In this document: piece after piece, positions 6,039-45,369 of the stretch
Numbering within the stretch: the first letter of the stretch is position 1
Layout of the letters: each line of letters opens with the position of its first letter
DNA from: a virus
Lineage: Duplodnaviria > Heunggongvirae > Uroviricota > Caudoviricetes
DNA length: 45,369 nucleotides
Reading direction: 5' to 3' (one strand)
Virus record (IMG/VR): IMGVR_UViG_2684622541_000015
The notes under the pieces: model-generated
The model's database searches: none
Told to the model about the DNA's origin: nothing
What the model saw: the letters and a program-made list of their open reading frames with translations, nothing else
Position numbers and translations under genes: made by a program

Positions 6039-6871
6039 ACAGTTTAACGGCAAATAACCGTTTGTCGCAACAGCTGGTGGTCAGCGTCGCTGAACACCTG
6101 TTGTTACGGCATGAATGCAGATTACCAAATCACCTGGCTGTAAGTAACCACAGAGAACTTTACCTGACTGTGGGGGGCGAGTTGTGCAGGAACTTAACCG
6201 CTGGTTTCGTGACGGAAGAGGACTTTATGTTCATGTTATTCGTTGGGAGCCAGAAACACAGCGCGTTATCTATCTTCGCAAAGACTACCCGCATGAGTGC
6301 TTTAGTCCTTTGTGGAAATTCAGGCGTGATTTTGTTGAGTGTGAAGGACCACCAGCACATTGATTCTGCCATTCCGGGACGTTACACTGTTCAGGCACCT
6401 TATAAAGCGGGTGCCGGGATTGGCGTCCTGGAATTGATCAAGGCGATATATGACGCGCCAGCGTCTTTTTTATCGTCCGCATTTGCTCACATCAAAGTTA
6501 TGGTGGGCTGGGCGGGGGCATCGAAAGATGCGCCGGTTTCCTTGATCACCGGTTACGCCAACCCCGTTCAGTTCACCACCAGCGAAATTGGCGTTTCCGG
6601 TGGTGGAAGTATTTCACCGATCAAGGAGGCTGCCATCATGGCTACTGTCCCAGCCCTCACTCGTCTGAATGATGAAGACTTACATAAACTCAGTTATGTA
6701 ACAACTGCACTACGTGCTCTGCGCAAGGTAACTCTTTCGGATCCGCAGGCACATCAGGTTCTGGTAGAAACCCTTCTTAACTTGCAAGCTGAACGTATTC
6801 GTCTGGCGGATAAGGCTAATTTTCATATTCACCGTCTCCTGAATATCAGCGGAGGGCATCGTCATGCTTAA
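6035..6871 (+). CDS. hypothetical protein
   Basis: 278-aa ORF, start ATG overlaps the upstream stop (ATGA). No motif recognised. Confidence 0.4.
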   Translation: MNSLTANNRLSQQLVVSVAEHLLLRHECRLPNHLAVSNHRELYLTVGGELCRNLTAGFVTEEDFMFMLFVGSQKHSALSIFAKTTRMSALVLCGNSGVILLSVKDHQHIDSAIPGRYTVQAPYKAGAGIGVLELIKAIYDAPASFLSSAFAHIKVMVGWAGASKDAPVSLITGYANPVQFTTSEIGVSGGGSISPIKEAAIMATVPALTRLNDEDLHKLSYVTTALRALRKVTLSDPQAHQVLVETLLNLQAERIRLADKANFHIHRLLNISGGHRHA

Positions 6872-35392: not shown

Positions 35393-35803
35393 NNNNNNNN
35401 NNNNNNNNNNNNNNNNNNNNNNNNNNNNNNNNNNNNNNNNNNNNNNNNNNNNNNNNNNNNNNNNNNNNNNNNNNNNNNNNNNNNNNNNNNNNNNNNNNNN
35501 NNNNNNNNNNNNNNNNNNNNNNNNNNNNNNNNNNNNNNNNNNNNNNNNNNNNNNNNNNNNNNNNNNNNNNNNNNNNNNNNNNNNNNNNNNNNNNNNNNNN
35601 NNNNNNNNNNNNNNNNNNNNNNNNNNNNNNNNNNNNNNNNNNNNNNNNNNNNNNNNNNNNNNNNNNNNNNNNNNNNNNNNNNNNNNNNNNNNNNNNNNNN
35701 NNNNNNNNNNNNNNNNNNNNNNNNNNNNNNNNNNNNNNNNNNNNNNNNNNNNNNNNNNNNNNNNNNNNNNNNNNNNNNNNNNNNNNNNNNNNNNNNNNNN
35801 NNN
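35393..35803. other. assembly gap (411 N)
   Basis: Run of N; the track ORF spanning it is an artefact. Confidence 0.95.
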
Positions 35804-36076
35804 TGGTTCAGCGCGTATGCGATGGCGGGTGTGGCTTACAGCCGTGTGTCGACTTTCTCCGGGGATTATATCCGCGTAACTGACAATAAGGGGAAAACGC
35901 ACGATGTGCTGACCGGAAGTGATGACGGTCGCCACAGCAACACGTCTCTGGCGTGGGGAGCTGGCGTGCAGTTTAACCCGACCGAATCCGTGGCCATTGA
36001 TATTGCTTATGAAGGCTCCGGCAGTGGCGACTGGCGCACTGACGGTTTCATCGTGGGTGTCGGTTATAAATTCTGA
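35804..36076 (+). CDS. lom: Lom/Ail-family outer membrane protein, C-terminal fragment (5' end in gap)
   Basis: C-terminal beta-barrel strands ending …GFIVGVGYKF, the Ail/Lom/OmpX family ending; position between J and stf as lambda lom. Confidence 0.6.
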   Translation, partial: WFSAYAMAGVAYSRVSTFSGDYIRVTDNKGKTHDVLTGSDDGRHSNTSLAWGAGVQFNPTESVAIDIAYEGSGSGDWRTDGFIVGVGYKF

Positions 36077-36102
36077 TTAGCCAGGTAACACAGTGTTATG
36101 AC

Positions 36103-36129
36103 AGCCCGCCGGTTCAGGCGGGCTTTTTT
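36103..36129 (+). terminator. intrinsic terminator downstream of lom
   Basis: Perfect 8-bp stem AGCCCGCC-GGTTCA-GGCGGGCT followed by T6. Confidence 0.65.
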
Positions 36130-36140
36130 GTGGGGTGAAT

Positions 36141-39100
36141 ATGGCAGTAAAGATTTCAGGTGTACTGAAAGACGGCACAGGAAAACCGGTACAGAACTGC
36201 ACAATCCAGCTGAAAGCAAAACGTAACAGCACCACGGTGGTGGTGAACACGCTGGCCTCAGAAAATCCGGATGAAGCCGGGCGTTACAGCATGGACGTTG
36301 AGTACGGTCAGTACAGCGTTATTCTGTTGGTGGAAGGATTCCCGCCGTCACATGCCGGGACCATCACCGTGTATGAAGATTCCCGACCCGGTACGCTGAA
36401 TGATTTTCTCGGTGCCATGACGGAGGATGATGCCCGTCCGGAGGCTCTGCGCCGTTTTGAGCTGATGGTGGAAGAGGTGGCGCGTAACGCGTCCGCNNNN
36501 NNNNNNNNNNNNNNNNNNNNNNNNNNNNNNNNNNNNNNNNNNNNNNNNNNNNNNNNNNNNNNNGTGGCACAGAACACGGCAGCCGCGAAGAAGTCAGCCA
36601 GTGATGCCAGAACATCTGCCCGTGAGGCGGCAACCCATGCGACTGATGCTGCAGGCTCAGCACGTGCAGCCAGCACGTCAGCCGGACAGGCCGCGACGTC
36701 GGCTCAGGAGGCTTTTTCCAGCGCAGGAACGGCATCAACAAAGGCCACTGAAGCATCAAAAAGTGCTGCCGCTGCAGAGTCCTCAAAAAGCGCGGCGGCC
36801 ACCAGTGCCGGTGCGGCGAAAACGTCAGAAACGAATGCGGCAGCGTCACAACAATCAGCTGCCACTTCTGCATCCACCGCGACCACGAAAGCGTCAGAAG
36901 CAGCCACCTCAGCCAGAGATGCGTCGGCTTCAAAAGAGGCGGCAAAATTATCAGAAACGAGCGCAGCTTCGAGCGCCAGTAATGCCGCTTCCTCGGCAAC
37001 GGCGGCAGGAAATTCCGCGAAGGCGGCAAAGACGTCTGAGACAAACGCTAAGTCCTCTGAAACGGCAGCAGCACAGAGTGCCTCCGCAGCAGCAGGCTCA
37101 AAAACAGCGGCTGCGTCGTCTGCCAGTGCAGCGTCAACAAGTGCCGGGCAGGCCTCAGCCAGTGCTAGCGCCGCCGGAAAATCGGCAGAAAGCGCCGCAT
37201 CGTCCGCTTCAACAGCCACAACGAAGGCTGGCGAAGCCACTGAACAGGCCAGTGCAGCAGCGAGGTCTGCTTCCGCAGCGAAGACATCGGAGACGAACGC
37301 GAAAGCGTCGGAGACCAGCGCAGAATCCTCAAAAACGGCTGCCGCATCGTCCGCCAGTTCGGCGGCGTCATCGGCATCATCGGCGTCTGCTTCAAAAGAT
37401 GAGGCGACCAGACAAGCGTCCGCAGCGAAGGGCAGCGCCACGACAGCATCCACGAAGGCGACAGAGGCTGCTGGCAGTGCGACGGCGGCAGCACAGAGCA
37501 AAAGTACGGCGGAATCCGCGGCAACGCGCGCCGAGACAGCGGCAAAACGTGCAGAGGATATTGCATCCGCCGTGGCGCTTGAGGATGCGAGCACGACGAA
37601 AAAGGGGATAGTACAGCTCAGTAGTGCGACTAATAGCACGTCTGAAACGCTGGCGGCAACGCCAAAGGCAGTAAAAGCAGCCAATGACAATGCTGAGAAA
37701 CGTCTGCAGAAAGACCAGAACGGCGCTGATATACCCGATAAGGGACGCTTCCTGAACAACATTAACGCGGTCAGTAAAACAGACTTTGCTGATAAGCGTG
37801 GTATGCGTTATGTGCGGGTTAACGCTCCTGCAGGTGCAACATCTGGAAAATATTACCCTGTTGTTGTTATGCGTTCTGCTGGCTCAGTAAGCGAACTGGC
37901 ATCAAGGGTCATTATCACCACGGCAACGCGAATCGCAGGCGATCCGATGAATAACTGCGAGTTTAACGGATTTGTTATGCCTGGTGGCTGGACTGACAGG
38001 GGGCGTTATGCTTATGGAATGTTCTGGCAATATCAAAACAATGAACGAGCCATCCACTCAATAATGATGAGTAATAAGGGCGATGATTTGCGCTCTGTGT
38101 TCTATGTTGATGGCGCTGCTTTCCCTGTTTTTGCGTTTCTCGAAGATGGCCTGTCAATATCCGCACCTGGTGCTGATCTCGTTGTTAATGATACGACCTA
38201 TAAGTTTGGGGCAACAAATCCGGCGACTGAATGTATCGCGGCGGACGTTATCCTTGATTTTAAGAGTGGGCGTGGTTTTTATGAGTCTCATTCGTTAATC
38301 GTTAACGATAACTTGTCGTGCAAAAAACTTTTTGCCACAGACGAAATTGTAGCGCGTGGTGGTAATCAGATTCGAATGATAGGTGGGGAGTATGGTGCAT
38401 TATGGCGTAATGATGGCGCTAAAACTTACCTGCTGCTTACCAATCAAGGTGATGTTTATGGTGGCTGGAATACATTAAGACCGTTTGTTATTGATAACGC
38501 AACCGGCGAACTGGTTATTGGAACCAAACTGTCTGCAAGTCTGAACGGTAACGCATTGACAGCAACAAAGCTGCAAACGCCAAGACTGGTTTCTGGTGTT
38601 GAGTTTGATGGTTCCAAAGATATTACTTTAACCGCCGCGCATGTGGCTGCTTTTGCCAGAAGGGCAACGGATACATATGCCGATGCGGATGGTGGCGTTC
38701 CATGGAATGCCGAATCAGGCGCTTACAATGTCACCCGCTCTGGCAACAGCTATATTCTGGTTAACTTCTATACCGGAGTCGGAAGTTGCCGGACCTTGCA
38801 GATGAAGGCGCATTACAGAAATGGTGGTCTGTTCTACCGTTCTTCAAGAGACGGTTATGGTTTTGAGGAAGACTGGGCAGAAGTTTATACCTCGAAAAAT
38901 CTTCCACCAGAAAGCTACCCAGTCGGTGCACCAATCCCGTGGCCATCAGATACCGTTCCGTCTGGTTATGCCCTGATGCAGGGACAGACTTTTGACAAAT
39001 CTGCTTACCCGAAACTTGCAGCCGTTTATCCGTCAGGTGTGATCCCTGATATGCGTGGCTGGACGATTAAGGGCAAACCTGCCAGTGGTCGGGCCGTATT

Positions 39101-39605
39101 GTCTCAGGAACAGGACGGCATTAAATCGCATACCCACAGCGCCAGCGCATCCAGTACGGATTTGGGGACGAAAACCACATCGTCGTTTGATTACGGCACT
39201 AAATCCACGAATAACACTGGTGCGCATACCCATAGTTTAAGTGGCAGCACGAATGCAGCTGGTAATCACAGCCATAGAGATGGCCGTCGATTTAACCCCA
39301 GTGTTTTTAAAGATACTTATCAATATGGTTATACAAGCTCAGGTCAAAATACCTGGGGTGTACAAGGCTCAGTAGGTATGTCTACGGGGTGGTTAGCGAA
39401 TACCAGTACAGATGGTAATCATAGCCACTCACTGTCCGGCACAGCAGCATCTGCAGGTGCACACGCGCATACTGTCGGTATTGGTGCTCATACGCACTCC
39501 GTTGCGATTGGTTCACATGGACATACCATCACCGTTAACGCTGCGGGTAACGCGGAAAACACCGTCAAAAACATCGCATTTAACTATATTGTGAGGCTTG
39601 CATAA
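36141..39605 (+). CDS. stf: side tail fibre protein (Stf-like), interrupted by a 67-N gap
   Basis: N-terminus [26 protein letters not shown]… closely matches my recollection of lambda Stf. Long Ala/Ser/Thr-rich repeat region; His-rich C-terminal tip (HSHS…HAHT…HTHS…HGHT). Start ATG 36141. Confidence 0.8.
36497..36563. other. assembly gap (67 N) inside stf
   Basis: Run of N. Confidence 0.95.
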
Positions 39606-40189
39606 TGGCATTCAGAATGAGTGAACAACCACGGACCATAAAAATTTATAATCTGCTGACCGGAACTAATGAATTTATTGGTGAAGGTGACGCATATATT
39701 CCGCCTCATACAGGTCTGCCAGCAAACAGTACCTATATTGCACCGCCAGATATTCCGGCTGGCTTTGTGGCTGTTTTCAACAGTGATGAGGCATCGTGGC
39801 ATCTCGTTGAAGACCATCGGGGTAAAACGGTTTATGACGTAGCGTCAGGGGACGCGTTATTTATTTCTGAACTCGGTCCGTTACCGGAAAATGTTACCTG
39901 GTTATCCCCGGAAGGGGAGTTTCAGAAGTGGAACGGCACAGCCTGGGTGAAGGATACGGAAGCAGAAAAACTGTTCCGGATCCGGGAGGCGGAAGAAACA
40001 AAAAACAGCCTGATGCAGGTAGCCAGTGAGCATATTGCGCCGCTTCAGGATGCTGCAGATCTGGAAATCGCAACGGAGGAAGAAACCTCGTTGCTGGAAG
40101 CCTGGAAGAAGTATCGGGTGTTGCTGAACCGTGTTGATACATCAACTGCACCTGATATTGAGTGGCCTGCGGTCCCTGTTATGGAGTAA
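39605..40189 (+). CDS. tfa: tail fibre assembly protein (Tfa-like)
   Basis: 194 aa directly after stf with overlapping start/stop; typical Tfa size and position. Confidence 0.7.
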
Positions 40190-40260
40190 TCGTTTTGTGA
40201 TATGCCGCAGCAACTTGTCATGGCAGGATACTGCGGCTGATTTGTGAATTTAAATAGTGT

Positions 40261-40324
40261 NNNNNNNNNNNNNNNNNNNNNNNNNNNNNNNNNNNNNNNN
40301 NNNNNNNNNNNNNNNNNNNNNNNN
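40261..40324. other. assembly gap (64 N)
   Basis: Run of N, 14 nt downstream of the RT stop codon. Confidence 0.95.
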
Positions 40325-40338
40325 AATGGATTACATAT

Positions 40339-41709
40339 CTATGATATCCCTGAAATGTCCTCTTCAAGCTCTTTTACTGATTTCGCAATTTTAAATTTAA
40401 ATTTTCTCTCTATTTCACTATTGCTAAGTTTTTTTTCATTCTCTTTCCCTATCCACATAGAAACAATTTCTCGTTTCTGAGATATATGTAGATTGTCAAA
40501 GTTAGGTATGTATTTAAAAGTCTCCGCTCTACCCCTGCGGAGTTCATAGAAAGTTTTAATCAAAGACTTTGGTTTTATTTCTGATGAAAGGCCGAATCGG
40601 CGGATAAGATTATTGATCGTATGATTAACAGCTCGAAGTTGAGCTGTTGACGTTATTTGTGAGAAGTACGATACCCATCCCAATCGTTTACCTTCAAACA
40701 CACATCCCGTAATTCTAAGATTTAGTTTCCACTGACAATATGCAACAGCTCGTTCTTTATCGCGCTTATTTTTAGCTTGTAGTAGAGCGTGTCTATATGC
40801 AGTAAAAATTTTTGCTAAGGATGACTCAAATCTAAGAATGCTCTCATGTTTTATCAATAATTCTCGATTTTTTATGTGGTAGCCCAAAAAGTTGAAACTT
40901 TCATCCAAGCTGCCTACTTTGGATTTTGAGTTCTCTTCATTTAATGGATGTGGGTTTAAATTTAATGATTGAAGCTTATCAATGATATGAGAAGCTATTT
41001 TTGTTGCTTGATATTTTGGTGTTAAAATAAGAATGTCATCAACGTATCGCATGTACCATATGTCATGCATTTTATTGATTTCATCATCGAAATTAGATAG
41101 TGATATTTCAGCTAAAATGTTTGATATCGCTAATCCCTGAGGTACTCCTCTGGTATTATTAGGGATACCTTTGCTTCCTGTGGTTCCACTTACAGTAGGC
41201 ACGATTAATGATGATGTTATTAACTGTCTAATTTCTTTTTTTCTAATTTTATTTTTTATTGCATTAATTATCAATTTATGTTCAATTGAAGGATAGAAAC
41301 TTTTAAGATCTATTTTTGCATATTCAGCATATAGACTGTTGTTTAATGCTTCTTTCAATGAGTCAATTACTGTATGTGGTAGTTTTAATCTGGACTTAGG
41401 ATATATTTCCGTAAGGCATTCACAGAGAGCTCTAAGAGTAATTCTGTCCCTAGCAGTTGGTATGGAAATCTGTCTGGGTGTAGAGTTAGCGCCTTTAGAT
41501 ATTAATTTTTCTTTATATGCTGTAAATTTGTAATTGCCAGAATTAACCTTTTCAAAAATGAAAGTGATCTCATTTTTTATTGTCAAATCAAGTTTTGATG
41601 GGCGAATCCGATCTATGCCAATCGCTCCTGATTCTTTGATTTTTTCAGAGTATACTTTTAGAAGATTTTTTTTCGAGAATGACTTTTTAAAAATTCTGCT
41701 TGCAGTCAT
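40339..41709 (-). CDS. reverse transcriptase (retron/Abi/UG-like; family unassigned) with ~150-aa C-terminal extension
   Basis: RT motifs read directly: KIDLKSFYPSI (motif A-like), RGVPQGLAISNILAEISL (motif B-like), YMRYVDDILIL (YxDD), FNFLGYHI (motif E-like). AT-rich. First ATG at 41709; track start 41715 is TTG. 5' end overlaps the upstream membrane-protein gene by ~23 nt. Confidence 0.75.
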   Translation of the reverse strand: MTASRIFKKSFSKKNLLKVYSEKIKESGAIGIDRIRPSKLDLTIKNEITFIFEKVNSGNYKFTAYKEKLISKGANSTPRQISIPTARDRITLRALCECLTEIYPKSRLKLPHTVIDSLKEALNNSLYAEYAKIDLKSFYPSIEHKLIINAIKNKIRKKEIRQLITSSLIVPTVSGTTGSKGIPNNTRGVPQGLAISNILAEISLSNFDDEINKMHDIWYMRYVDDILILTPKYQATKIASHIIDKLQSLNLNPHPLNEENSKSKVGSLDESFNFLGYHIKNRELLIKHESILRFESSLAKIFTAYRHALLQAKNKRDKERAVAYCQWKLNLRITGCVFEGKRLGWVSYFSQITSTAQLRAVNHTINNLIRRFGLSSEIKPKSLIKTFYELRRGRAETFKYIPNFDNLHISQKREIVSMWIGKENEKKLSNSEIERKFKFKIAKSVKELEEDISGIS

Positions 41710-42238
41710 AGTCAATCCAAAGATATATTAATGGGAGTATATAAAGTGCGGCAGTAATAAATATTCGAAGTAATATCCATAAAATAACAATTATTTTTTC
41801 TTTTTGTGTGGGGATCCTCGTCTTAAGTCCAACTTGAGTTACCCTTGAAATTTTATCATCTATGTCACGGTGATTCTCAACCTCATTGAGCAAATTAAAA
41901 TATTTTTCTTTCTGTTCAAGAGATAACTGTTGACTGGTGGTAATGTCAAAATAGAGTCGCTGTAGTGCAATATAATTCCTTCTCATGGCTATTGCTCGAC
42001 CACGAAAATCTAGGTTAGATACGATCAGAGAAATACCCAGTAGAGCCACTGAAAGTATCGCCGCAACGACATCTGTATTATCTCCTAGAACCTTTGGAAA
42101 TCGCAACGTTACAATTGAAAGTACCGCACTCAATATAGCATACCAAACGAGGATAAATTGAGAGTGTTTTTCAAGCCATTCTAGTCGATGGTGCGCTTGG
42201 ATACGTGCTTTATATGTAAACCAAATATTGTCATGCAT
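41687..42238 (-). CDS. small multi-pass membrane protein, candidate effector partner of the RT
   Basis: 183 aa with three hydrophobic segments (FILVWYAILSAVLSIVTL; VVAAILSVALLGISLIVS; IIVILWILLRIFITAALYILPLIYLWI) and a ~60-aa central soluble region. AT-rich; RBS AAAAAGGA before the ATG. Confidence 0.55.
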   Translation of the reverse strand: MHDNIWFTYKARIQAHHRLEWLEKHSQFILVWYAILSAVLSIVTLRFPKVLGDNTDVVAAILSVALLGISLIVSNLDFRGRAIAMRRNYIALQRLYFDITTSQQLSLEQKEKYFNLLNEVENHRDIDDKISRVTQVGLKTRIPTQKEKIIVILWILLRIFITAALYILPLIYLWIDYDCKQNF

Positions 42239-42460
42239 AAAAGATCCTTTTTAAAAGCGGAAGGGGCAGGATATATTGGAACCGTTGAACATCCTGCCCG
42301 GCAGGATCAGTGAGCATAAGCTCAACAGTAAAATATTACTGTTCATTATCAGAGCCGCCCTTGCATGCGCAAGAGGAAAAACCTGCCCCATCCCTTTGAA
42401 TTATTACAATTTAATGATCTTAAAGTCAATACAAGTGAATGGTGTCCAGAGATGATGAAC
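42239..42460 (-). ncRNA. hairpin-dense leader / candidate structured non-coding RNA upstream of the membrane-protein/RT operon
   Basis: Within ~130 nt: GGGGCAGGAT (42263..42272), complement ATCCTGCCC (42291..42299), GGCAGGAT (42300..42307), complement CCTGCCCC (42382..42389); plus hairpins AACAGTAA-AATA-TTACTGTT (42324..42343), TGAGC-ATAA-GCTCA (42311..42324), CTTGC-ATGC-GCAAG (42360..42373). No ORF of 60 aa or more. Confidence 0.3.
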
Positions 42461-42709
42461 TTAATGAACAAACCACTCGTCAGCAGACTCCCAGGTATCT
42501 TTCAGAGTCTCCTGAACAAAAGTTTTAGCTGAATCTTTATCAGCGGTGCGCGTAACAGAAAGGCCATCGTTGCTGGTGGCTTTTACGATCACTTCTACAT
42601 CGTCATAACGTTTACTGATGCGTCGGGTTAATTCTTCCTTTAACGCATCCACAGCACCGGTTGGCATTTTAGTCATTTTTTCTTTGGCTATGCAGATTTC
42701 AATACGCAT
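42461..42709 (-). CDS. dinI: DinI-family protein
   Basis: 82 aa; MRIEICIAK…[10 protein letters not shown]…[15 protein letters not shown] closely matches my recollection of E. coli DinI (MRIEVTIAK…GAIDAL…ETWESADDWFV). Tandem SOS boxes upstream. Confidence 0.7.
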
Positions 42710-42721
42710 AAAAGTCCCCTA

Positions 42722-42769
42722 CACTGTATTTGTATACAGTATTATTTTTAACTGTATGGATAAACAGTG
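42722..42769. promoter_or_regulatory. two tandem LexA (SOS) boxes upstream of the dinI-like gene
   Basis: CACTGTATTTGTATACAGTA (42722..42741) and AACTGTATGGATAAACAGTG (42750..42769), each CTGT-N8-ACAG with AT-rich centre; they overlap the 3' end of the integrase ORF. Confidence 0.6.
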
Positions 42770-43867
42770 TCAAGAGGTCTTATTTCTGCTCCTTTGGAGT
42801 TCTTCAAAACGATTATGTAAAGATTTCGGATACAGTTCGGTATATACCTGCCATAGCACGTTTAATGAACGATGCCCTGTAACCTGAGCGACTTCCTCAA
42901 TACTAAAACCAGCCTCAAATAAGCGACTTGCCCCTTCTCTACGCAAATCATGGTATCTCAGATCTTTAATACCTAATTTGCTTCTTACCCTCTGAAATCC
43001 TGCGGTAACAGAAGTGCTGTTATATGGAAAAATGAATTCTGATTTTTTGGGTTGTCGCTGGACGATATCCCAGGCTTCCCCAAGCAAGGCAACTTTCATA
43101 TGGTTGCCTTCCTTTTTACGTGGATCTTTCCTGTCTCTTACTAGTATAGATTTTTGTTCCTGGTCGAGATCTTCCCATCGTAACCGGCATACTTCTCCGA
43201 TTCGCATACAGGACCACACAGAAAATTTGAGGATATCAACGAACGGAATTTTTGAGCATTTATGAGTAGATCGTTGTTGAAGGCCTTCAATGAGCATGTT
43301 CAGTTCATCAGATGCTGGTCTACGATTACGACGGTTTGATTTACCAATCAAACCGAGTTTAAGTAGATATGGACGAGCGCTTTTCGCCGGGTTTGATGTG
43401 TAATTGATTCCGTATACAGGTTTTGCCGCATCCAGAACACTGCCAAGATAACTAACATCGTGGCTGACTGTTGCTGGGCCTGCACCAGCGTTGTTTCTTA
43501 GCCTGCAATGTTCAATTACGTCATTTTCTGTCAGTTCAGATAGTTTGATCGCGGAGATGTCACTATCCATAAGCAGTTCCAGCACATATCTTTTAGTACG
43601 GCCTGCTTTACCTCCGGCATTTGGGTCATTTAAATATTTGTGTAGTAAGTCACGGACTGTAAGTCCGTCAACAGCATTTGATGATGGAATGCCATATAGA
43701 TCTAATTCCATCACTTTCTGTGCGCCCCATGTTTTGGCATGAGCATGTTTAGGGAATGTTTTGCTTTCCCTGTAAGTGATAACACCTTTTTCTTTGATAA
43801 TCACATTACAGCGATAGCGTGGTGTGCCATCGGATTTTAGTCGTTTCTCTATGTTATAGTACGCCAT
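42770..43867 (-). CDS. int: tyrosine recombinase / phage integrase, divergent from dusA
   Basis: 365 aa; C-terminal catalytic region (…HDLRREGASRLFEAG…VTGHRSLNVLWQVYTELYP) consistent with the tyrosine recombinase R-H-R-Y family; start lies 88 bp from the dusA start on the opposite strand. Confidence 0.85.
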   Translation of the reverse strand: MAYYNIEKRLKSDGTPRYRCNVIIKEKGVITYRESKTFPKHAHAKTWGAQKVMELDLYGIPSSNAVDGLTVRDLLHKYLNDPNAGGKAGRTKRYVLELLMDSDISAIKLSELTENDVIEHCRLRNNAGAGPATVSHDVSYLGSVLDAAKPVYGINYTSNPAKSARPYLLKLGLIGKSNRRNRRPASDELNMLIEGLQQRSTHKCSKIPFVDILKFSVWSCMRIGEVCRLRWEDLDQEQKSILVRDRKDPRKKEGNHMKVALLGEAWDIVQRQPKKSEFIFPYNSTSVTAGFQRVRSKLGIKDLRYHDLRREGASRLFEAGFSIEEVAQVTGHRSLNVLWQVYTELYPKSLHNRFEELQRSRNKTS

Positions 43868-43886
43868 TACACGACCTCGTTATTTC

Positions 43887-43922
43887 GGGTTCCCATAAAG
43901 CGTGGGAACCTGTGCGGGAACC
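43887..43922. repeat. GGGAACC-type inverted and direct repeats in the int-dusA intergenic region
   Basis: GGGTTCCC (43887..43894) facing GGGAACC (43904..43910), with a second direct GGGAACC (43916..43922). Confidence 0.35.
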
Positions 43923-43955
43923 TAACGCGAGAAAAATAGCCTGAAATGTTCAAAA

Positions 43956-44993
43956 ATGCACGATAATCCTGAAACACAGAAAACTAATCAAACCAGCGTG
44001 ATGCCTGAAAAAACTGGCGCTTACTGGAGTTCTCGGTTTAGCATTGCTCCTATGCTCGACTGGACGGACAGACATTGCCGCTATTTCTTGCGTCTGCTTT
44101 CCCGCAATACGTTGCTGTATACCGAAATGGTGACCACAGGGGCGATTATTCACGGTAAAGGTGATTACCTGGCGTACAGTGAAGAAGAACATCCGGTAGC
44201 GTTGCAACTCGGCGGTAGCGATCCGGCGGCGCTGGCACAGTGTGCGAAGCTGGCAGAAGCGCGTGGATATGATGAGATCAACCTGAATGTCGGCTGCCCG
44301 TCTGACCGGGTGCAGAACGGCATGTTTGGTGCGTGTCTGATGGGTAATGCGCAGCTGGTTGCCGACTGCGTGAAAGCGATGCGCGATGTGGTGTCGATTC
44401 CAGTGACGGTGAAAACGCGTATTGGCATCGATGACCAGGACAGCTATGAATTTCTCTGCGATTTCATCAACACCGTTTCCGGCAAAGGCGAGTGTGAGAT
44501 GTTTATCATCCACGCACGTAAAGCCTGGCTTTCGGGGTTAAGCCCGAAAGAAAACCGTGAAATCCCGCCACTCGATTATCCGCGTGTGTATCAACTGAAG
44601 CGTGACTTTCCGCATCTGACAATGTCGATTAACGGTGGTATCAAGTCGCTGGAAGAGGCCAAAGCACACCTGCAACATATGGATGGCGTGATGGTCGGGC
44701 GCGAGGCGTATCAGAATCCGGGTATTCTGGCGGCGGTAGACCGGGAGATCTTTGGTTCCTCGGATACCGATGCCGATCCGGTGGCGGTAGTGCGCGCCAT
44801 GTATCCGTACATTGAGCGTGAACTCAGCCAGGGGACGTATCTCGGCCATATTACCCGGCATATGTTGGGCTTGTTCCAGGGTATTCCTGGCGCGCGGCAG
44901 TGGCGGCGTTATTTAAGTGAAAATGCCCATAAAGCGGGTGCAGACATTAATGTGCTGGAACACGCGCTCAAACTGGTGGCGGATAAGCGTTAA
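43956..44993 (+). CDS. dusA: tRNA-dihydrouridine synthase A
   Basis: 345 aa; matches my recollection of E. coli DusA over nearly the full length (…[14 protein letters not shown]…[14 protein letters not shown]…[10 protein letters not shown]…). Confidence 0.9.
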
Positions 44994-45126
44994 CTTTTCA
45001 CCAAAAAGTAGTCAAATTCACCACGCCCTGCGCACCGTCGCGGGGCGTTTTGCTGTTAAATCAATAGATTATTTTTGGCATGATTCTTGTAATGCCAGCA
45101 AGAGATTTCATATTTGGGAGAGCATC

Positions 45127-45369
45127 ATGCTGGAACTACTTTTTGTGATTGGCTTTTTTGTCATGCTGATGGTCACCGGCGTTTCGTTGCTGGGCATTAT
45201 CGCCGCGCTGGTTGTGGCGACGGCCATTATGTTCCTCGGCGGTATGCTGGCATTGATGATTAAGTTGCTGCCGTGGTTACTACTGGCGATTGCGGTGGTG
45301 TGGGTTATTAAGGCGATTAAAGCACCAAAAGTGCCGAAATATCAGCGTTATGACCGCTGGCGTTACTAA
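45127..45369 (+). CDS. pspG: phage shock protein G
   Basis: 80-aa hydrophobic protein MLELLFVIGFFVMLMVTG…KYQRYDRWRY matching E. coli PspG; lies downstream of dusA as in E. coli. The 150-aa track ORF is an upstream in-frame extension. Confidence 0.8.
   Translation: MLELLFVIGFFVMLMVTGVSLLGIIAALVVATAIMFLGGMLALMIKLLPWLLLAIAVVWVIKAIKAPKVPKYQRYDRWRY

Follow-up and report, generated by a model that had tools for sequence, protein, structure and literature searches.

In 2022, Mestre et al. (PMC9226505) listed reverse transcriptases (RTs) of the UG17 group together with SLATT partners, and Tang et al. (2025; PMC12632851) named the corresponding defence system DRT10 and showed that three Escherichia coli homologues (Eco1-3DRT10) defend against phages. 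The stretch of DNA analysed here, 45,369 nucleotides (nt) from a virus of the Caudoviricetes (Duplodnaviria; Heunggongvirae; Uroviricota; IMG/VR record IMGVR_UViG_2684622541_000015; hereafter the window), carries on its minus strand an RT gene, an overlapping gene for a small membrane protein and, upstream of both, a structured non-coding RNA (ncRNA). This locus is an intact DRT10 anti-phage system (UG17, SLATT-RT architecture) and, by every comparison made, appears to be a natural allele of Eco3DRT10, a reading to which we assign a probability of roughly 0.93.

The system is already known in detail, as the combination of UG17 and SLATT is DRT10, characterised in 2025-2026 (PMC12632851; 10.64898/2026.04.29.721553; 10.64898/2026.06.29.735271). 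Its defence requires RT catalysis, the SLATT protein and an ncRNA encoded upstream of SLATT, and the RT makes protein-primed, tandem-repeat single-stranded DNA, copying an A-B-A' template that follows a stem-loop immediately on its 3' side (Tang et al., 2025; PMC12632851). In the case of Eco3DRT10, a 456-residue RT is primed from S456 and uses a 137-nt ncRNA with the template CAAUGAUUC followed by CAAU; mutagenesis showed that A' serves for realignment, and no more than three bases of homology were found to be needed, with a tolerant fourth position (PMC12632851). Sanchez-Nieto et al. (2026; 10.64898/2026.04.29.721553) confirmed the tripartite design and the phage defence conferred by the E3659 system, which depends on RT, SLATT and ncRNA, found that SLATT-first overlapping genes are the predominant DRT10 architecture and that their ncRNA models work only within subtypes, and reported that SbcB controls DRT10 and that a phage SSB-like protein activates it. 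Finally, the cryo-electron microscopy (cryo-EM) of Eco3DRT10 revealed a 2:1 RT:ncRNA complex, in which loop A of the RNA has 12 nt and contains G44 and loop B has 19 nt and contains G111; the same study pointed out two spurious N-terminal residues in the NCBI entry for the Eco3 RT (OKX54664) (Ramirez et al., 2026; 10.64898/2026.06.29.735271).

The reverse transcriptase and its SLATT partner

A preliminary description of this region, made from the letters alone, proposed an anti-phage module composed of an RT and a membrane effector, carried as prophage cargo. The profile searches support this proposal, giving UG17 for the RT and SLATT_5 for the membrane protein. The RT open reading frame (ORF; 40339..41715, minus strand) encodes 458 amino acids from a TTG codon or 456 from the ATG at 41709, and the four RT motifs originally quoted are all present in its translation. 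Judging from the homologues, the ATG is the real start, which sets the gene at 40339..41709, because M1 does not vary among 25 homologues and because the listed homologues are 452-460 residues long (mostly 454-457). The 458-residue GenBank record of this protein, ANK04665.1, therefore begins two residues early.

The PADLOC profile RT_UG17 matches the protein with 526.6 bits (E 1.1e-158) over profile positions 1-429 of 429, and Pfam RVT_1 matches it with an E-value of 7e-21. The NCBIfam profiles for group II RT/maturases, Drt3a, Drt2 and the retron St85 RT all remain far under their cut-offs. The catalytic residues Y222, V223, D224 and D225 (YVDD; codons 41035-41046) and the terminal S456 (codon 40342-40344) are invariant in the 25 homologues, which share 59-83% identity. 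These matches place the RT, at the sequence level, in the UG17 clade of the class 2 UG/Abi RTs. The AlphaFold2 model (mean predicted local distance difference test 85.1; predicted template-modelling score 0.75) displays an RT fingers-palm core followed by a helical C-terminal region, which ends in a long helix (residues 430-453) and the final three residues G-I-S456. The C-terminal extension, initially described as lacking a recognisable motif, is thus modelled as a thumb-like helical region, the C-terminal helix and the predicted priming serine. Foldseek comparisons of the model retrieve the G2L4 RT, the SenDRT9 RT, the GsI-IIC group II RT, an RT from a diversity-generating retroelement (DGR) and DRT2, the neighbourhood expected of a class 2 UG RT. 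No DRT10 entry was found by sequence or fold searches of a copy of the PDB that precedes the 2026 depositions.

The second gene (41687..42238, minus strand) encodes a SLATT_5 effector of 183 residues, with three hydrophobic segments at approximately residues 28-47, 57-76 and 148-175 in a Kyte-Doolittle profile. It scores 100.1 bits against Pfam SLATT_5 (cut-off 29.5) and 136 bits against the NCBIfam profile of the same name (cut-off 60), and PADLOC RTasSLATT, the profile for RT-associated SLATT proteins, matches with an E-value of 1.5e-56. Its TAA stop (41687-41689) lies inside the RT ORF, so that the two minus-strand genes overlap by 23 nt when the RT is counted from the ATG at 41709, as the preliminary description had put it; this overlap probably provides translational coupling. 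The order with the membrane gene first, and the RT length, had been set against those of Ec48-type retrons, and the module was taken as a possibly undescribed or poorly described variant. This view does not hold, since a full-length UG17 RT together with an RT-associated SLATT_5 protein is the known DRT10, and SLATT-first overlapping genes are its predominant architecture rather than an exception.

In GTDB genomes, 44 related loci were gathered and their RT homologues aligned. Nearly all of these loci have SLATT directly upstream of the RT: every locus whose RT is at least 44% identical does (27/27), as do most loci with more distant RTs. Distant UG17-like RTs (L028-L038 and L040-L045; 24-37% identity, mostly alphaproteobacterial) also mostly retain an upstream SLATT gene. 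Both ORFs of the window are intact and 100% identical copies occur in many genomes: the exact RT protein is recorded for 732 contigs, and at least 1000 contigs carry the exact membrane protein, showing that the ORFs are not due to chance. The module is present in 197 of 5426 complete E. coli genomes, and the ncRNA region in 188; a megablast search of a phage-genome collection retrieved no copy.

The upstream RNA and its template

The essential third part of the system, the ncRNA with its promoter, falls outside the interval to which the preliminary description was confined (40339-42238). We located a DRT10 ncRNA of about 137 nt at 42257..42393 (minus strand), its ends being set by homology with the 137-nt Eco3DRT10 RNA. 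Its basal stem SL1 (GGGGCAGG / CCUGCCCC) is accompanied by four smaller stem-loops; loop A spans about 42343-42354, and loop B, which contains the template, about 42271-42290. The RNA lies, with a promoter-like site, within the 222-nt spacer between a dinI-like gene and SLATT. The predicted fold, a GC-rich basal stem around four hairpins, has a minimum free energy of -57.2 kcal/mol (z = -4.58), and none of 200 shuffled sequences folds as well.

The region upstream of SLATT is alignable across Enterobacterales, Pseudomonas, Stutzerimonas, Stenotrophomonas and Bordetella. In an alignment of 26 loci, RNAalifold predicted 34 base pairs, 17 of which present compensatory double changes; 97.7% of the cells were paired, against 50-56% after sliding the partners by 1-3 columns, and the observed covariation score was reached by none of 500 shuffles. 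A covariance model built from 24 loci, with E. coli and Xenorhabdus excluded, produced a single match in the window (42255-42408, minus strand; 116.8 bits, E 8.9e-29). Together, the structure, the covariation and the covariance-model match indicate that the ncRNA is real, conserved and located at the expected place. Rfam holds no family for the DRT10 ncRNA. None of the distant UG17 loci, alphaproteobacterial or other (L028-L038, L040-L045), gave a match to the Eco3-like covariance model, suggesting that their RNAs, if present, belong to another class.

A predicted sigma-70-type promoter for the ncRNA is located at 42400..42429 (minus strand), with TTGACT, a spacer of 17-18 nt, TAATAA/AATAAT and an upstream TG. 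It scored 10 of 12 in the promoter scan, with the TG extension, and Pseudomonas loci display -10-like hexamers (TAGAAT/TAAGAT) at an equal distance upstream of the basal stem. If this site functions as a promoter, transcription of the ncRNA would start at about 42393. Downstream, in the segment 42239-42270, the basal stem gives way to UUCCGCUUUU and AAAGGA, after which comes the SLATT ATG, 19 nt past the end of the ncRNA; this short distance is kept in other genera. As the interval between the ncRNA and SLATT contains no separate promoter-like site, the SLATT-RT mRNA may come by read-through from the ncRNA promoter.

When position 42393 is taken as nt 1 of the ncRNA, the numbering of Eco3DRT10 is recovered: the template begins at nt 107, A' begins at nt 116 and G44 falls in loop A. 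The predicted template A-B (42279..42287, minus strand; nt 107-115) reads 5'-CAACGGUUC-3' and is homologous to the Eco3DRT10 template, and the realignment segment A' (42275..42278, minus strand; nt 116-119) reads 5'-CAAU-3'. The template loop as a whole has the sequence GUUCAACGGUUCCAAUAUAU. The template is directly 3' of stem-loop SL5, with CAAC-GGUUC-CAAU at nt 107-119, and its GUUCAA context is almost invariant over the 26 loci. In most of these loci the A-B-A' direct repeat is anchored on (U)CAA; a direct count gave 22, including those with CAA at nt 107-109 and 116-118 (the window, L002, L027 and L025/26).

The window locus and Eco3DRT10 share many features. Both have the order ncRNA, SLATT, RT; a 456-residue RT with YVDD, a C-terminal helix, a terminal Ser456 and the same TTG/ATG ambiguity of the start; a 137-nt ncRNA with a basal stem, four stem-loops and G44 in loop A; and a loop B with the template at nt 107-115 and A' at nt 116-119. 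They differ slightly in the length of loop B (19-20 nt in the window, 19 nt in Eco3) and, above all, in the template, which is CAACGGUUC in the window and CAAUGAUUC in Eco3 (U110C and A112G), followed by CAAU in both. Because of these two bases, the complementary DNA (cDNA) unit of the window allele is predicted to be 5'-GAACCGTTG-3', instead of GAATCATTG in Eco3. The genome of E. coli CE10 has the exact Eco3 template, and its locus is very close to that of the window, with 445/456 identical residues in the RT (97.6%), 179/183 in SLATT (97.8%) and 218/222 identical bases in the intergenic region. Near-identical RTs are also present among the entries that could be consulted in Table S1 of Tang et al. 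(PMC12632851), and neither the name Eco3 nor its ncRNA is among the entries listed in the available part of these supplements. Overall, these comparisons argue strongly that the window locus is an allele of Eco3DRT10.

The two changes affect realignment. In the window, A and A' share CAA (3 nt), and after one round of copying, the DNA, with GTTG at its 3' end, could anneal again to CAAU by three Watson-Crick pairs plus a dG:rU wobble at the fourth position, whereas the homology in Eco3 is 4 nt. In addition, A112G gives the window allele a further direct repeat that Eco3 lacks, GUUC/GUUC (period 8; nt 104-107 and 112-115). This repeat could act as a cryptic realignment site, and an 8-nt register through it might give the period-8 sequence CGTTGAAC.

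The window type is also the commoner one in complete E. coli genomes: among the 188 with the ncRNA, 154 have exactly the window-type template loop (42272-42290) and 34 exactly the Eco3 type, so that the allele found in most of them differs from the one that has been studied. No other template-loop variant and no single-change intermediate was found among those 188 genomes. We consider it unlikely that this two-base polymorphism is functional rather than neutral. If it were, the commoner allele would make another repeat (GAACCGTTG) with only 3 nt of realignment homology, perhaps with a competing 8-nt register, and the repeat sequence itself would be under selection, for example through escape from a cDNA-recognising phage factor or the tuning of SLATT activation; this would represent a natural "telomere-repeat" variation inside one species. 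The two-allele polymorphism and the possible 8-nt cryptic register from A112G are the only new details with respect to the published system. A further idea, that U110C and A112G are compensatory changes keeping an internal dyad (AAY-C-RTT) in the cDNA unit and so imply fold-back DNA, was rejected, as the self-complementarity of the 14 distinct predicted repeat units is not above that of shuffles, and is below it for most units.

Prophage setting and alternative readings

The island is AT-rich, as the preliminary description had noted: its GC fraction is 0.337 over the two genes (40339-42238) and 0.514 in the remainder of the prophage (1-40189). Its described position, between the tail-fibre assembly gene and the dinI/integrase end, was confirmed by the RefSeq annotation of an E. 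coli O25b:H4 genome (L001) that is 100% identical to the window over the module. There, the gene order is host specificity protein J, Lom, tail fibre, tail-fibre assembly, RT, SLATT, DinI-like, tyrosine integrase and dusA. In the window, the island is likewise flanked by the tail-fibre assembly gene on one side and by the dinI-like gene and the integrase on the other, with dusA nearby. In RefSeq, the two proteins are still named "reverse transcriptase domain-containing protein" and "SLATT domain-containing protein", and the ncRNA has no entry; this annotation can now be corrected.

The dinI-like gene, ncRNA, SLATT, RT and tail-fibre genes form one block at no fewer than two chromosomal sites of lambdoid prophages, namely beside dusA and an adjacent tyrosine integrase (the window and L001) and beside prfC (L046-L048). 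The adjoining tail-fibre and assembly genes differ between sites (L001 and L046-L048 compared with 39605-43867 of the window), which suggests a cargo slot travelling with the dinI end of the prophage. The window also contains runs of N at 40261-40324 (64 bases), 36497-36563 (67) and 35393-35803 (411). In L001, whose flanks are 100% identical, no more than 27 bases (AAATCCTTTATATATAAAGCAATAAAC) stand in place of the first run, which closely follows the RT stop; either the masked length is not the real length or the source differs there. Among other RNAs, a full-length Rfam match to IS009 (RF02111; 226.8 bits, gathering score 117) is located at 39948-40146 (plus strand), within the tail-fibre assembly gene adjoining the defence island. 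Far from it, isrK (6395-6471, plus strand; 64 bits) and a C4 antisense RNA (6496-6583, plus strand; 82 bits) both exceed their Rfam gathering scores. Such a pair is typical of the P1/P7-like antirepressor control region of some lambdoid prophages.

Several points weigh against reading the locus as an intact DRT10 system and an allele of Eco3DRT10. The equivalence with Eco3DRT10 was drawn from the numbering, the template and the allele comparisons rather than from a direct comparison of the sequences, and defence, cDNA synthesis and serine priming would be properties carried over from close homologues. With respect to Eco3, U110C and A112G reduce the A-A' identity from 4 nt to 3 nt in the aligned sequences and, considering also the GUUC/GUUC repeat, the repeat length and the precision of the window allele are not certain. 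In addition, the local terminator region is concealed by the run of 64 N that closely follows the RT stop. Lastly, two published groups disagree on the response to infection: the cDNA falls in the homologue closest to the window locus (Tang et al., 2025; PMC12632851) and rises in a different subtype (Sanchez-Nieto et al., 2026; 10.64898/2026.04.29.721553).

The alternative that survives best is that DRT10 is present but inactive in the native strain, either as a decaying remnant or as silenced cargo. It would fit with the AT-rich, horizontally acquired DNA, which is typically silenced by H-NS in E. coli, with the frameshift of the neighbouring dinI-like gene in one related prophage and with the template identity of only 3 nt between A and A'. 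Nevertheless, both ORFs are full-length with their catalytic and priming residues intact, the promoter and every ncRNA helix are intact, and three bases of A-A' homology suffice in Eco3DRT10. An inactive remnant is very unlikely because every element is intact and the window allele is the majority one, as its template is the one carried by 154/188 E. coli genomes with the ncRNA.

Less probable still, and hardly to be expected, is another class 2 UG system, DRT3 or DRT9, making poly(dTdG) or poly(dA) and accompanied by an accessory SLATT protein. The Drt3a profiles are indeed the second-best matches of the RT (130 bits in PADLOC and 112.6 bits in NCBIfam), the SenDRT9 RT is its second-best fold match, and such loci can carry SLATT proteins (PMC9226505). 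However, the UG17 match is about 400 bits better than that of the runner-up Drt3a, the NCBIfam score is well below the cut-off of 200, and the locus has a single RT ORF with no second RT (Drt3b/UG8). Moreover, the RNA contains neither an ACACAC nor a U-run template, and its loop has CAACGGUUC-CAAU.

The three remaining alternatives, each scarcely credible, concern other families of RTs. In a retron of the Ec48 kind, the RT would make multicopy single-stranded DNA from an msr/msd RNA and guard an effector with two transmembrane segments, released when a phage inhibits RecBCD. The presence of an RT beside a small multi-pass membrane protein in a prophage had led the preliminary description to this comparison, and retron RTs are retrieved by Foldseek (E ~1e-8) and weakly by the St85 RT profile (58.4 bits). 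The comparison proved misleading: the St85 score compares with a cut-off of 235 and with 527 bits for UG17, no Rfam retron RNA family was found in 39500-44000 even at E-values of up to 1, the conserved upstream RNA has the DRT10 architecture and an A-B-A' template rather than the inverted repeats of msr/msd, and the effector is SLATT_5, not the Ec48 two-transmembrane family.

The RT could instead be a group II intron maturase or a group-II-like RT, a mobile retroelement and not a defence gene, given that TIGR04416, the NCBIfam RT/maturase profile, matches residues 16-374 with 144 bits, that GIIM matches weakly (E 0.029) and that the best sequence and fold matches in the PDB include the GsI-IIC and G2L4 RTs. 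However, the cut-off of TIGR04416 is 300 bits, Rfam finds no group II intron RNA in the window, and the RT, far from being contained in an intron, overlaps the SLATT gene in an operon conserved over about 40 loci; class 2 UG RTs are also known to resemble group II RTs in structure. As for a DGR RT rewriting a variable repeat in the nearby tail-fibre gene, the tail-fibre neighbourhood is the classical target context and Foldseek retrieves DGR RT structures (E 4e-12), but this possibility is rejected because there is no pair of template and variable repeats (no direct repeat of at least 40 nt in 36000-45369), and the locus has no Avd-like gene, its RT profile is UG17 and the same module is found beside unrelated tail-fibre genes in other prophages. 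Thus, the signs of a non-defence RT class that would have spoken against a defence module, a group II maturase or a DGR with template repeats, were looked for and not found.

Proposed mechanism and comparison with known systems

Sequence and comparison show that the three components are present and intact, that the RNA structure is conserved and that the A-B-A' repeat is present. From this and from the published homologues, a mechanism can be proposed for the window locus. The promoter at about 42400-42429 would drive the 137-nt structured ncRNA, the former being predicted and the latter strongly supported by covariation, and read-through or co-transcription would probably yield the SLATT-RT mRNA, whose 23-nt overlap may couple the translation of the two genes. 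As in the Eco3DRT10 cryo-EM structure, two RT monomers would bind one pseudo-symmetric ncRNA and, by analogy with the same system, the monomer at loop B would prime DNA from the hydroxyl of its own C-terminal Ser456. The 9-nt template CAACGGUUC would be copied up to the boundary set by SL5, after which the nascent DNA would dissociate, re-pair with the downstream CAAU and be extended again. If the mechanism of Eco3DRT10 applies, the product would be a kilobase-long, protein-linked, single-stranded tandem repeat, with GAACCGTTG as the predicted unit. The host exonuclease I (SbcB) would restrain these products, as in other DRT10 homologues, and infection, via SSB-like proteins or another disturbance of single-stranded DNA metabolism, would alter the cDNA in its amount or its state. 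The SLATT membrane protein might then open or become active, and so kill or arrest the cell before the phage cycle ends.

Apart from Eco3DRT10, the closest described systems are E3659 DRT10, assigned to UG17-A, and Eco1DRT10. Both share with the window the tripartite ncRNA-SLATT-RT organisation with SLATT first, coupled genes, a SLATT_5 effector and a template bordered by short repeats, from which tandem-repeat cDNA is predicted to be made. In contrast, the E3659 system, from an Escherichia sp., has by its published coordinates an RT of about 445 residues, an ncRNA of 143 nt and a 7-nt repeat (AGTAATA) (10.64898/2026.04.29.721553), Eco1DRT10 primes from a tyrosine (Y444), and the ncRNAs of both are unrelated to that of the window at the sequence level. 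The window fits UG17-A by its architecture (SLATT first, overlapping genes) and its occurrence in Pseudomonadota. The H120 prophage locus (Rousset et al., 2020; 10.1101/2020.05.25.114553) also combines a prophage UG17 RT with SLATT_5 in a pathogenic E. coli, but its RT comes first, with SLATT downstream, and it belongs to subtype UG17-B; this locus makes sbcB essential (10.1101/2020.05.25.114553).

Beyond UG17, DRT9 (UG28) and DRT2 (UG2) are, like DRT10, class 2 UG RTs in which a dedicated structured ncRNA templates a repetitive cDNA, and both are close fold matches of the window RT. DRT9 is also protein-primed and has a similar ncRNA fold; however, it makes poly(dA) from a U-run, primed by internal tyrosines in a hexamer, whereas DRT2 copies by a rolling circle that creates a neo gene, and neither requires SLATT.

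The most distant comparison concerns telomerase (TERT and telomerase RNA), for which an evolutionary link with DRT10 was claimed by Tang et al. (PMC12632851). Both copy a short template carried by a separate RNA, stop at a structured 5' boundary element and realign on a repeated segment, which leads to repeat-addition processivity. In contrast to telomerase, DRT10 is protein-primed, lacks the TEN and TRBD domains, has an RT of 456 residues instead of about 1100 and plays an immune role. DRT10 is notable as a telomerase-like, serine-primed RT serving immunity; its discovery, its reconstitution and its cryo-EM structure are already published, for an apparent allele of the window locus.

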